DNA of 64,000 nucleotides from Escherichia coli (GCF_050320075.1 NZ_CP190018.1); one strand, 5' to 3'. Positions 21,001 through 27,000 are shown, counted from the first letter of the stretch. Numbers are program-made.

Positions 21001-24000
21001 GACGAACGCGCCTGATGAAGATCCGGACGATTTAAGCACGGGATATTTCGGTTCAGCGTACCGGTCAGCGGAGAACTGGACGACGTCACTGCGAAGCAGT
21101 CATTTCAGCGCGGCAGCCCGTCGGGGGATTATTTCTGACAGATTTGTAGAAGCAATTTTGCAGTTTTGGCGCGAAAGGTGAGCGGGGAGTTTATTCATGG
21201 GGGATGTCCTTGTCCGTTCCCAGAGCAGACAACAAAAAACAAATGAGATCAAGGTAATATCTCTTCACTTGCGGGCTCGAACAGCAGGCAATTGCCAATA
21301 TAATAATCTGGCACAAGGGTGAAAAACGCGCACCGCATAAACCGTTGTTATTTCTTACAGATTAGCCGGATGCCTTAATAGACATCCGCGCCTTTTCGGT
21401 TATGGCTCGGAAATCTACGAACATCTACACAGTTTACTGGAACGTTTTGGGCCACAGCGTTCGCAGCACCGTCCTGATATGCCGTTCTGGCGATTATAAG
21501 TCGACGGATTCTGGCAAATAGACGATGATGATATGCTTAATGATGTTCAAAGAAATTAGGCCATTATTATATTATTGCTTGCATTTTCTTTCATTCCTAA
21601 AAGCACCCGCCATTAATCCCAGGCGCATTATGCAAAGGAAAATGATTAGGTAAACAATAAGATTTATAATCAGGAAAGGCGACTCACAATAAAACGGAAA
21701 GTCGCCTTAACATTGGTAAAATATGCCCTTTACTACTCCTGTATCATGAACGGCTCATCACATTTAAAGCTGACGTTGATCCAGACTACCATATATTGCC
21801 TTTATTTCATTTTTTACGCCTTCGCCACGGTACACCAAAGACGTATCGTATCGTTGATACTTATCTTCCCGTGCAGCACTGAACCAGTTAAAAGATCCGA
21901 CACACAGCAGTTCTTCATCCTCAATCACAATTTTGCTGTGGACACGATTAACCAATTTCGTAGCGATACCCATCTTATTGAGCTTTTCAACAGCATCATT
22001 CAGCAGATGTTGTTTCTCCTGACGCTTATCATCATCGACATGCGCTATATTGCAGTTTTTATCCGTCACCACGGTAATATCAATGCCCCGGGAACGGGCC
22101 AAAGCCATTGATGCCAGAAATCCCGTTTGCTCCACTTTTTGCCAAGATAACCAAGGGGAAATAATCGTTATTTTCTTTTGAGCTCCGGCAAGAGTCTTGT
22201 TCAAAAATCCATCATGCTGCTCCACACCATGCAGCGTTGAAATTTGTGTATGTGCGGAAATTAAATCCTGTCGTTTCTGAAACTCAAATTGCAACGCATT
22301 ATTATCTGAAGAAAAGAGATATTTTGCCAATAACCCTCGCGGCGAAAATGCGGGCTGCATCTCGATAAGGTCCATATCGCCAAATACCAGAAAACTATCT
22401 TTAGCGCGTGAGACAGCAACATTGAGGATACTGCTGTTGCTATCAAGAAACCTGCCATCTTCATGTTTTGAGTAGACAGGAGAAAAGAGAACAATCGCCC
22501 TTTCCGCCCCCTGCAAGGAGTGCACAGTCCCCACTGTCAGTGAACCCTGCTCGTCTTTGCCATTAATTTCCAGCTTACGCAATGACGTTTTGATAGCATT
22601 AACCTGCGCCGAAAATGGCGTCACAACACCAACAACTTTGTACAGTGGTTCCCCGTAATGGCGCTCTATATCATCCTTATGTGCCACCAGCCATGCTGCT
22701 ATTGTTTCAGCTTCAAGAGGGTTATAACGGCTCCCTCCATTTGGCTTCATGCCTCTACCATCAATTTGTAAATATCCCATTGCGGGGAAAATCGTCCCTT
22801 TTTCCATCCCTCTTTTAGGCTGCAACTTACCGTGATAGCAAAGTGAGTTACAGTAGCCGATGATGTTATTGAAACAGCGACGATGCTCATACAGATACAT
22901 TCCGCGCTCGAACTTGGGATCATACTGGTAGTGAGAGTTGAACTGGGCTACCTACATTACGCTGCCAGATGCTGCACTTTTTCCAGACCCATTTATTATC
23001 GAATACGGTGACCGCCTGAGCGGCCACCTTTAATCGTGGGCAGTTACACAGAATTATTTACAGGGCCTTGCTGGGAGTTCTTACACTTGCTCGCGATATT
23101 CAATTGGCCATTGTCAACAAGATGACGCAGGTTTTGATTGGTGATATCTATTTACGTCAGCAATGCGATGTGTTTTGGCTCGGCTATACCATCAGTCCCG
23201 CTTATACTCGCCAGGGATATGCAATTGAAGCAATTACCGCCACGATTGACTGGATAAAAGAGAACGGTTTTTCACTCACCAAAGCCGGTGTGAATCCGGA
23301 AAATACCCTTTCAAAAAAATTACTTATCAGGATTGGCTTCAATTTTTCGAGCATCGAAGATGAGTGAGCATATTTATGTTCTGGATTAAACAAAAGGAGA
23401 ATAATCTCCCGAAGGGAAAAGCCGATGAGGCCATTTCAGGCGTACTTCAACATGCATTCGTCAGTGTCATCTGCCTTTTCCAGTAAATGGGTTGGCATTC
23501 AATTTCCAAAGTACATCACACTTTTTCTACTGAAACATATCCCTCCTATAACTACGTGTTAATATTCGCTCCGTAAATACCTTTCAACTCAACCCGAAGC
23601 TTTGATGCTGGAGAATGTAATCATCCGATAATCAGTTCCCCGACCTTTTCAGGCCGGACTGATTATCAATGCGCCGAAATCGAATGCGGACACCGCGGTG
23701 TGTTTGCACGTTTTGCACATGATGATTAAATAGGTTCTTCAGTATGAATTTATCCCGTCAGGAACAACATACCTTACACGTTCTCGCTAAAGGTAGACGT
23801 ATTGCGCACGTCCGCGATTCTTCAGGCCGCGTCACTTCCGTTGAATGCTACAGCCGCGAAGGGCTGTTGCTGACCGACTGCACGCTCGCCGTCTTCAAAA
23901 AACTCAAAACCAAAAAACTTATCAAGCCCGTCAATGGCCAGCCCTATCGAATCAACACCACCGAGCTGAATAAAGTTCGCGCTCAGCTCGATAATCGCTA

Positions 24001-27000
24001 AGGAGAGTTTCTATGACAGTACACCACTTCACTTTTCATATCACAGATGAAAGTGATGCCAGTGATATCCGGGAAGTCGAAACCCGCGCATTTGGCTTCA
24101 GCAAAGAAGCCGATTTAACGGCCTCTTTACTTGAGGATGAAAGCGCGCGCCCTGCGTTATCGCTGCTGGCCCGACATGAAGGCAAAGCCGTCGGGCATAT
24201 TTTATTTACCCGGGCAACCTTCAAAGGGGAAATGGATTCACCGCTGATGCATATCCTCGCTCCCCTGGCAGTCATACCGGAATACCAGGGGATGGGCGTG
24301 GGAGGACGGTTGATACGCACTGGCATCGAGCACCTGAGGTTGATGGGCTGCCAGACGGTTTTTGTTCTCGGCCACGCCACCTATTACCCCCGACATGGGT
24401 TCGAACCCTGTGCCGGAGACAAAGGCTATCCGGCACCTTATCCCATCCCGGAGGAGCACAAAGCCTGCTGGATGATGCAAGCACTCACCGCTCAGCCCAT
24501 GAACGTGACCGGCCACATCCAGTGCGCGCAGGCCCTGATGAAACCGGAGCACTGGCGTGAATAACAATCTTGTTGTGCCCTTTTTAATGCTTAACCCAAT
24601 AACAGGAATTAACTAATGGATATTCCACGTATTTTTACCATCAGTGAAAGCGAACACCGCATCCACAACCCGTTCACCGAAGAGAAGTACGCCACGCTGG
24701 GTCGCGTGCTGCGCATGAAACCAGAGACCCGAATTCTGGACCTCGGCAGCGGCTCGGGCGAGATGCTCTGCACCTGGGCCCGGGATCATGGCATTACGGG
24801 GACTGGAATCGACATGAGTTCGCTCTTCACCGCGCAGGCCAGACGCCGCGCGGAAGAACTCGGCGTCAGCGAACGCGTACATTTTATTCATAATGATTCG
24901 GCGGGTTACGTCGCCAATGAAAAATGTGACGTAGCAGCCTGCGTTGGCGCGACCTGGATTGCCGGAGGCTTTGCCGGGACAGTCGAACTGCTGGCGCAGA
25001 GCCTTAAACCGGGCGGGATCATGCTCATCGGTGAACCTTACTGGCGTCAGCTTCCGGCAACGGACGAGATAGCCCAGGCCTGTGGCGTCAGCTCGACGAC
25101 CGATTTTCTGACGCTACCAGGGCTTGTCAGCGCGTTTGACGACCTCGGCTACGACGTGGTAGAAATGGTACTGGCGGACCAGGAAGGCTGGGACCGATAT
25201 GAGGCCGCGAAATGGCTGACCATGCGCCGCTGGCTGGAGGCCAATCCTGACGATGACTTCGCCGCCGAAGTCAGGGCCGAGCTAAACATCTCGCCGAAAC
25301 GCCACGTAACGTACGCGCGGGAATACTTTGGCTGGGGCGTGTTCGCACTCATCGCTAGGTAACAACAGGTTCCCGGTATTTCTGACCGGAGATACCGGGG
25401 GCTTAGCCTTTGCTTTAATCTGATGCATCACCTGCACAATACATATTCAGTATGTTTATTAATCAAGATGTCACCATAAGGAGCATCATATGTCACAACA
25501 TGAACAGTTCTGTCAGGCTTGCGGAATGCCGATGTCGGCACCAGATGCACACAGTGCCAGTGATCAATATTGTGCGTACTGCAGCGACAGCAACGGCAAT
25601 CTCAAACCCTGGGAAGAAGCGGTATCAGGTTTAGCCAGCTTCCTTGATTCCTGGCAAAAAGTCGGCCCGGAGGAAGCACATAAGCGTGCAAAACGTTATC
25701 TGACGGCAATGCCCGCCTGGGCTCATAAAGCGGAGAGTGATTTGAGCTGATTATCTATACTCCCTCTGAATCTATTCAGGAGATCCGATGTTTTCTTACA
25801 TTATGCTGGGAACCAACGACCTGCCACGCGCCATTACATTCTAAGATCCGCTGATGGAGATGCTGGGGTATCCACGTGCAGGACGTAATGAAGAGGGAGC
25901 GTCCTGCAACAAAGTGGTGCGATAACAGTTACCGCGTTTTATTCATTCTCATTATTTCAACCATAATCACTGGTCTCTCTAGCCCGTAACTTTCACAAAC
26001 GTTGAGCGCTTTTATTCCACTCGGCTCACATAATTTTTTATTTGTTCAGCTTTGCGCGTTTTCACGTGAACGTTCTCACAATTATTCGACCAGTCTGCGC
26101 CTATAAAACGCTCAACGAGTGATTGTTTTACGGTCTACGGAGATAGCTATGTCATTTTCTGTGCAGGAAACCCTGTTCTCGCTTTTGCAGCACAATGCGA
26201 TTTCAGGACACGAAAACGCTGTCGCTGACGTCATGCTGTGCGAATTCAGGCGTCAGGCAAAAGAGGTCTGGCGAGACAGGCTTGGGAATGTCGTCGCGCG
26301 CTACGGTAGTGATAAACCCGATGCGCTGCGACTGATGATTTTTGCGCATATGGATGAAGTCGGTTTTATGGTGCGCAAAATAGAGCCTTCTGGATTTTTA
26401 CGCTTTGAACGCGTAGGCGGTCCTGCGCAGGTCACTATGGCTGGATCCATCGTCACCCTCACCGGGGACAAAGGGCCAGTCATGGGGTGTATCGGCATTA
26501 AGTCCTACCACTTTGCCAAAGGCGACGAGCGCACGCAGTCACCTTCTGTCGACAAACTGTGGATTGATATTGGTGCCAAAGACAAAGACGACGCTATACG
26601 AATGGGCATTCAGGTCGGTACGCCTGTCACTCTGTATAACCCGCCGCAACTCCTGGCAAACGATCTGGTGTGCAGTAAAGCACTAGACGATCGTCTGGGC
26701 TGTACTGCCCTGCTCGGTGTAGCGGATGCTATCAGTACTACGGAGCTTGATATCGCCGTTTATCTGGTGGCTTCGGTACAGGAAGAATTTAATATCCGCG
26801 GCATTGTTCCCGTATTACGCCGTGTAAAACCTGACCTGGCGATTGGTATTGATATCACTCCATCGTGTGACACCCCTGATTTACACGATTATTCCGAGGT
26901 CAGGATTAATCAGGGCGTTGGGATCACCTGCCTGAACTACCATGGTCGGGGAACGCTGGCCGGATTAATCACGCCTCCTCGCCTGATACGGATGTTGGAA

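Follow-up and report, generated by a model that had tools for sequence, protein, structure and literature searches.

The topAI and yjhQ genes of Escherichia coli were analyzed in a window of 64,000 nt (GCF_050320075.1 NZ_CP190018.1, one strand). These genes almost certainly belong to the chromosomal operon toiL–topAI–yjhQ–yjhP, in which all parts are present and uninterrupted, giving a module that is structurally intact yet possibly attenuated. The locus is already known: it is the published K-12 operon in its normal place, and in itself it adds nothing new. The initial annotation had described the stretch 23744–24564 as an intact topAI–yjhQ toxin–antitoxin pair, overlooking the leader reading frame toiL and the third gene, yjhP. 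Both genes that it named were found there, topAI at 23744..24001 and yjhQ at 24013..24564, both on the + strand and both matching family profiles, and their frames are uninterrupted as had been described, with ATG starts and no internal stops. The spacer between them, given as 12 bp, measured 11 nt. As for the pair being intact, the description held for the open frames and for yjhQ, which by comparison with its homologues has the ancestral, full-length form, but less well for TopAI, which has a serine-to-proline substitution at a conserved site (S62P); the module's function in this lineage is putative.

The assignment of the window to the E. coli chromosome, and of its genes as real, follows from exact matches to annotated chromosomes and from collinearity with K-12. 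Four complete E. coli chromosomes matched positions 23400–25800 with 100% identity, and ≈1650 others did so at 95% or more; the RefSeq labels for the genes are topAI, yjhQ and yjhP. A 20-kb segment of K-12 MG1655, from yjhI to fimC, was collinear with positions 12788–32800 of the window at 98.2% identity. The operon is flanked by remnants of yjhR and yjhZ on one side and by the sgc genes on the other. The topAI–yjhQP segment is accessory rather than core, being present in only ≈1650–1775 of the 5426 complete E. coli genomes. In one E. coli record an ISEc52 insertion was seen inside the matched topAI–yjhQP region, and in strain Nissle 1917 an ISEc52 transposase is located just upstream of the topAI locus.

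The first gene, topAI (yjhX), encodes an 85-amino-acid (aa) topoisomerase I inhibitor. Its product aligned end to end with Pfam YjhX_toxin (PF09857; residues 1–85 of an 85-position profile, E 4e-36, 123 bits with the cut-off at 27) and scored 145 bits with NCBIfam NF010240 (cut-off 99). The family matches of both TopAI and YjhQ are far beyond chance. TopAI was identical to the K-12 protein at 84 of 85 residues, and the only change, S62P, results from codon 62 (23927–23929) being CCC rather than TCC. All 20 enterobacterial homologues first sampled had Ser62. A scan of species-representative genomes yielded 587 loci encoding topAI, and the 80 with the best scores were retained (L015–L094, nearly all Enterobacterales); the search pattern for related loci, built from a 10-sequence alignment, required Arg9 and excluded the K-12-type E. 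coli alleles, which have His9. All 80 of these loci had Ser62, as did 27 of 30 more distant family members (34–62% identity), the remaining three having Leu, Asn and Ala; Pro never occurred. All other nearly invariant positions of the TopAI core, including those in the motif LIxSxxGxPYRI, were retained in the window.

An AlphaFold model of TopAI (pLDDT confidence score 84) placed residue 62 in a strand formed by residues 60–63, within a C-terminal β-hairpin made up of LIxSxxGxPYRI, the most conserved motif of the family. Comparison of the TopAI sequence with the PDB gave nothing meaningful, and comparison of the model with PDB folds gave no match at E ≤ 0.001, the best having E 3.5e-3 and a TM score of 0.42. 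The top candidates, all above E 0.001, were small ribosomal proteins and winged-helix regulators, and the predicted fold has only a loose winged-helix-like resemblance at most.

Of 5426 complete E. coli genomes, 68 carried the Pro62 allele, which was also seen on at least 1000 contigs of a large collection; it is a successful minority allele and not a sequencing error. At residues 9, 18, 74 and 77, TopAI of the window and of K-12 is of a divergent type with His, Arg, Glu and Lys, as opposed to the Arg, Gly, Gly and Asn of Nissle 1917 (L003, 741–995) and of almost all other Enterobacterales. E. coli has at least two topAI haplotypes, each combining with either of the two yjhQ alleles described below.

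Upstream of topAI is the 171-nt 5' region of its mRNA (23573..23743, +; length from PMC12121999), identical to that of K-12 except at position 23598. The published length implies a transcription start near 23573. A likely extended −10 promoter element, TGtTAATAT (23557..23565, +), recognized from its sequence and identical in K-12, ends 7 nt upstream of this start; it was not reported by a sigma-70 scan that required both hexamers. The pyrimidine-rich 5' end of the leader was described as a rut element, at which Rho is loaded (PMC12121999). The upstream open reading frame toiL, with eight codons encoding MLENVIIR (ATGCTGGAGAATGTAATCATCCGATAA), is located at 23605..23631 (+), 139 nt 5' of the topAI ATG, as published (PMC12121999). 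The peptide MLENVII(R) was kept in 72 of the 80 species loci, at a distance of 135–140 nt upstream of topAI.

RNA folding predicted a leader structure at 23602..23748 (+) in which toiL is paired to the stretch 5' of the topAI AUG. The fold of 23573–23760 had a free energy of −56 kcal/mol (z = −3.4), and none of 200 shuffled sequences was as stable. In both the minimum-free-energy and the centroid structure, the toiL codons paired with the nucleotides immediately 5' of the topAI AUG, and the predicted fold matches the published model of the toiL hairpin (PMC12121999). An Rfam scan of 23300–25900 returned no match at E ≤ 1, and the toiL leader is therefore absent from the curated RNA families.

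Over the 344 nt preceding topAI, a single base differs from K-12: a G-to-A change at 23598, in the Shine–Dalgarno sequence of toiL (23596..23599, +), which is located 5 nt before the toiL ATG and reads GAAG in the window and GAGG in K-12. GAGG was also found in Nissle 1917, ATCC 11775, Salmonella, K. oxytoca and Buttiauxella, as well as in each of the 72 species loci with a recognizable toiL, none of which had GAAG; the window thus departs from the usual toiL Shine–Dalgarno sequence. Among the 5426 complete E. coli genomes, 107 had the A allele, and GAAG and TopAI Pro62 occur together in at least 20 of the genomes listed.

The consequences of these changes can be considered in light of the work done on K-12. 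When translation is not under stress, the leader hairpin hides the topAI ribosome-binding site, and when topAI is not translated, Rho terminates transcription between nt 10 and 42 of its reading frame (PMC12121999). Ribosomes stalled in toiL by tetracycline, retapamulin, erythromycin, tylosin or spectinomycin cause the hairpin to open, so that topAI can be translated and yjhQ and yjhP reached by read-through; a topAI translational reporter was induced 250- to 4000-fold by toiL-stalling antibiotics, and disruption of the toiL Shine–Dalgarno sequence abolished induction by every antibiotic tried (PMC12121999). The TopAI protein blocks relaxation by topoisomerase I, binding to the DNA-bound N-terminal part of the enzyme. 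Cells over-expressing TopAI die but are rescued by co-expression of YjhQ, which was recovered together with TopAI in pull-down experiments; gel-shift experiments showed no binding to the operator (PMC4666372). An independent study confirmed the interaction between TopAI and topoisomerase I and found that co-expression of YjhQ lowered mortality; it also reported that topAI was truncated during laboratory evolution and that deletion of topAI speeds growth under stress (PMC11695965).

We propose that the lineage represented by the window carries two derived changes at otherwise invariant sites, GAGG to GAAG in the toiL Shine–Dalgarno sequence and Ser62Pro in TopAI. Because disruption of the Shine–Dalgarno sequence abolishes induction in the K-12 reporters, GAAG probably reduces the antibiotic inducibility of the operon in this lineage, and Ser62Pro may weaken the toxin. 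The module would then be structurally intact yet possibly attenuated.

Several points weigh against this reading. The published Shine–Dalgarno mutation was probably more severe than a single G-to-A change: GAAG retains some complementarity to the anti-Shine–Dalgarno sequence, and in-frame TTG and CTG codons beside the toiL start could still support some initiation. Pro62 does its hosts no obvious harm, given that at least 68 complete genomes and 1000 or more contigs carry it. All of the functional data were obtained with K-12 proteins, that is, Ser62 TopAI and a YjhQ of 181 aa, alleles other than those of the window. Finally, most species with topAI are without yjhQ, which weakens the case for YjhQ as a dedicated antitoxin.

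An alternative that we consider possible, if the less probable one, is that the module is functionally decaying or attenuated in this lineage, with Ser62Pro disabling or weakening TopAI, GAAG blunting induction, and the open frames hiding the loss. Both sites are invariant across Enterobacterales (80/80 loci for Ser62 and 72/72 for GAGG), Ser62 is conserved in the distant family as well, and the proline lies inside a predicted β-strand of the most conserved motif. The two changes occur together in the genomes mentioned above, and the loss of induction upon Shine–Dalgarno disruption in K-12 (PMC12121999) and the truncation of topAI in laboratory evolution, together with faster growth of the deletion strain under stress (PMC11695965), point in the same direction, as does the fact that the neighboring yjhR, yjhZ and VOC genes are already pseudogenes. 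However, none of the four reading frames is disrupted, the remainder of the leader is identical to that of K-12, and the wide spread of these alleles would fit neutral hitch-hiking in a successful clone equally well. The effect of either substitution is also deduced from the sequence. We favor the reading of a structurally intact operon in which attenuation is a possibility.

Whether topAI and yjhQ make up a toxin–antitoxin pair was considered next to the features expected of a type II system. The two genes are adjacent and on the same strand, separated by an 11-nt spacer (GGAGAGTTTCT, 24002..24012, +), and transcription as an operon was shown in K-12. The Shine–Dalgarno sequence of yjhQ, AAGGAG, overlaps the topAI stop codon, and translation of the two genes may be coupled. 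A DNA-binding antitoxin with autoregulation was not found: the profile matches of YjhQ were to GNAT domains only. The topAI operon was reported to be regulated via toiL and Rho (PMC12121999).

Toxin and antitoxin were not co-conserved either. Genes downstream of topAI, within 3 kb, were classed by profile searches of six-frame segments. A YjhQ-like or YhbS-like GNAT, fragmented in several cases, was found in 13 of the 80 loci, and an S-adenosylmethionine (SAM) methyltransferase, either YjhP-like or of a second type of 236–241 aa, in 60; ten loci had both and are included in both counts, and 17 had neither. These proportions are approximate, the 80 being the best-scoring of 587 loci, with K-12-type alleles left out. 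Gene order varied as well: topAI–methyltransferase–yjhQ in Salmonella and topAI–yjhQ followed by a fused double methyltransferase in K. oxytoca, with the genes being separated in Buttiauxella. Homologues of YjhQ at 54–58% identity, for example in Methanolobus, were found without a nearby YjhX gene, and two distant YjhX genes, on short contigs, had no GNAT downstream; most of the contigs with distant YjhX representatives were too short to show much of the gene context.

Toxin–antitoxin status is thus not supported by gene co-occurrence, while the K-12 neutralization data stand. The rescue and pull-down results on neutralization by direct binding apply to the 181-aa YjhQ and Ser62 TopAI of K-12. 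In describing a toxin–antitoxin pair, the initial annotation was right about the adjacency and consistent with the K-12 over-expression and pull-down experiments (PMC4666372), but the pairing was seen in only 13 of the 80 loci and is the exception across Enterobacterales, autoregulation was not found, and the unit is really a four-part operon.

It is also conceivable, with about the same modest probability as decay, that topAI–yjhQ is no dedicated pair at all, and that what is conserved is toiL–topAI together with an enzyme that modifies small molecules or proteins, in most cases a SAM methyltransferase. On this view, YjhQ would be an accessory acetyltransferase with its own substrate, and its neutralization of over-expressed TopAI would be secondary. 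The distribution of partners, the variable gene order, the Methanolobus homologue without a YjhX neighbor and, as far as their short contigs allow, the two distant YjhX genes without a GNAT are all consistent with this idea. So are the intact acetyl-CoA motif of YjhQ and its lack of a DNA-binding domain, as well as the lack of operator binding in K-12 (PMC4666372), and the authors of the toiL study themselves speculated on additional functions of topAI and/or yjhQ/P (PMC12121999). Against it stand the rescue of K-12 from TopAI toxicity by YjhQ and the pull-down of the two proteins (PMC4666372), the lowered mortality upon co-expression in the independent study (PMC11695965), and the approximate nature of the proportions.

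Slightly more doubtful is the suggestion that the operon is an inducible stress or antibiotic response, consisting of toiL, topAI, a methyltransferase and sometimes YjhQ, in which the enzymes act on a small molecule or a ribosomal target, rather than a classical addiction module. An enzymatic activity of YjhQ may have been overlooked, as the K-12 experiments used a C-terminally frameshifted form of the protein.

This frameshift distinguishes the yjhQ genes of K-12 and of the window. The window gene (24013..24564, +) encodes a GNAT acetyltransferase of 183 aa that matched Pfam Acetyltransf_1 and Acetyltransf_7 above their cut-offs and has a conserved acetyl-CoA motif (Q/R-x-x-G-x-G/A), Q92-G-M-G-V-G97. 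The protein belongs to the YhbS-like GNAT group, and its nearest solved relatives in the PDB are 4zbg and 4rs2. Its AlphaFold model (pLDDT 92) had the GNAT strand order, with the tail predicted, at lower confidence, as a short helix after the last strand. Up to residue 172, 165 of 172 residues were identical to K-12 YjhQ, the seven substitutions from window to K-12 being E13K, T36V, H55Y, A157S, N164T, V165L and Q170R. Residues 173–183 are read in another frame, due to a 2-bp indel in a GC repeat, which is GCGCGC in the window (24524–24529) and GCGC in K-12. As a result, the last 11 residues are altered, and the proteins end in GHIQCAQALMKPEHWRE in the window and GHIRCADPDETGALT in K-12.

The homologues of Enterobacter, Citrobacter, Salmonella, Klebsiella and Buttiauxella are 183 aa long and end in ALMKPEHWRE. 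The tail CAxALxKPEHWRE was kept even in the homologues at 54–58% identity, from Bacteroidota, Desulfovibrio and the archaeon Methanolobus; this family-typical tail is present in the window YjhQ and absent from that of K-12. When read in the old frame, the K-12 gene still encodes AQTLMKPEH, a stop codon, RE and a second stop codon. Because the outgroup homologues share its length and tail, the 183-aa form of the window is, on this comparison, ancestral, and the 181-aa form of K-12 is derived from it by a 2-bp deletion. Alignment with K-12, proposed as a check for truncation or inactivating substitutions, therefore gave a mixed outcome: yjhQ does have a frameshifting indel, but the window has the ancestral form, and TopAI has Ser62Pro.

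Seed-restricted searches, each able to match only one of the alleles, found window-type yjhQ in 741 complete E. coli genomes and K-12-type yjhQ in 910, a sum of 1651 compared with 1652 genomes holding most of the locus. In two out of two genomes checked, YZLc1-3 and Nissle 1917, RefSeq (PGAP) calls the window-type yjhQ "frameshifted", and in the one genome checked with the K-12-type 181-aa gene, ATCC 11775, it calls the gene intact. In the compared loci, yjhQ was located at 8614–9161 (L001) and 1010–1557 (L003). Judging from the outgroup alignment, the label is a reference-bias artefact, and the window yjhQ is more intact than the K-12 reference gene. That yjhQ is instead a frameshifted pseudogene, leaving the toxin gene without a working antitoxin, is highly improbable: PGAP marks the identical sequence in both strains and there is a genuine 2-bp length difference from K-12, but the window frame gives the family-typical 183 aa and the tail ALMKPEHWRE, shared into other phyla and an archaeon, the K-12 frame swaps this tail for the unrelated DPDETGALT while its old frame has gained a stop codon, and the exact 183-aa protein was deposited in GenBank by its submitters as an N-acetyltransferase. 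The pseudogene reading is contradicted by the outgroup alignment and was rejected.

The third gene of the operon, yjhP (24616..25362, +), begins 51 nt after yjhQ and encodes a class I SAM-dependent methyltransferase of 248 aa (Pfam Methyltransf_25/31/11) that is 96% identical to K-12 YjhP along its entire length. It was reported to be within the topAI operon (PMC12121999). A weak terminator-like hairpin at 25396..25412 (+), 34 nt after the yjhP stop, was picked up by a consensus scan only and has a poor T-tract; we attach no functional weight to it.

Beyond yjhP, a zinc-ribbon reading frame (Pfam Zn_ribbon_2) at 25490–25750 (+), 86 aa from its first ATG and 73 aa in RefSeq, is open in the window but has a pseudogene, yjhY, as its counterpart in K-12. 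Behind it, at ≈25788–25904, is a short fragment of a VOC-family gene, annotated as a pseudogene. On the other side of the operon, a reading frame of 99 aa at 23068–23367 (+) matched a GNAT profile over its C-terminal half only (Acetyltransf_3, positions 52–138 of 138); this is the counterpart of the K-12 pseudogene yjhZ, although a near-identical RefSeq genome has it annotated as a regular GNAT gene. A 378-aa reading frame at 21764–22900 (−) corresponds to a remnant of the helicase gene yjhR, which is annotated in K-12 and in the near-identical strain as a pseudogene with an internal stop and a missing N-terminus. Further upstream, nanS (20201–21184, +) is an uninterrupted reading frame of 327 aa, 97% identical to K-12 NanS. 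The RefSeq annotation of the near-identical strain had suggested a truncation of nanS, an idea that was dropped because the reading frame in the window is uninterrupted. For a strain identical over the topAI region, RefSeq shows only a partial sialate O-acetylesterase pseudogene at nanS, and this strain may differ from the window there.

These results matter in three respects. The reference-biased call of yjhQ concerns an allele type present in ≈741 complete genomes, with consequences for pseudogene counts and for YjhQ assays that use the K-12 clone. The variant lineage, with its mutated toiL Shine–Dalgarno sequence and TopAI Ser62Pro, is a ready natural test of the regulatory model and of TopAI residues. 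The finding that topAI occurs mostly alongside methyltransferases and rarely with yjhQ questions the toxin–antitoxin label and directs attention to the role of yjhP.

The closest known system is the K-12 operon toiL–topAI–yjhQ–yjhP itself (b4566, b4307, b4306; Yamaguchi & Inouye 2015, PMC4666372; Baniulyte & Wade 2025, PMC12121999), which has the same locus, gene order and genomic neighbors. The leaders are one base apart, TopAI is identical at 84 of 85 residues and YjhQ at 165 of 172 up to the indel, and YjhP is 96% identical. The differences are that yjhQ encodes 183 aa with the ancestral tail in the window and 181 aa with a frameshifted tail in K-12, and that the window has TopAI Pro62 and GAAG as the toiL Shine–Dalgarno sequence, whereas K-12 has Ser62 and GAGG.

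In its regulation, the operon resembles the leader attenuation of erm(B) and erm(C), where a short upstream reading frame acts as a sensor of ribosomes stalled by the drug and releases a downstream ribosome-binding site from sequestration, a comparison made in PMC12121999; the hairpin was reproduced by folding of the window leader. Unlike the erm leaders, however, toiL responds to at least five classes of antibiotics and is coupled to Rho termination in the first gene, and the genes that it regulates are not known resistance genes.

CcdB–CcdA and ParE–ParD are type II systems with toxins that act on gyrase. The likeness lies in a small topoisomerase toxin that is neutralized through direct binding by a co-transcribed protein, which for TopAI is based on the K-12 data. 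However, the target of TopAI is topoisomerase I, and no rise in nicked DNA was observed (PMC4666372). The toxin gene, topAI, also comes first in the operon, its presumptive antitoxin is a full-size GNAT without a DNA-binding domain or detected autoregulation, and the partners are not co-conserved.

In TacT–TacA, AtaT–AtaR and ItaT–ItaR, the GNAT is the toxin and acetylates aminoacyl-tRNA. These systems share with topAI–yjhQ the presence of a GNAT-fold protein in a two-gene toxin–antitoxin layout, but the roles differ: YjhQ, a GNAT of the YhbS-like group, is the reported antitoxin and not the toxin.

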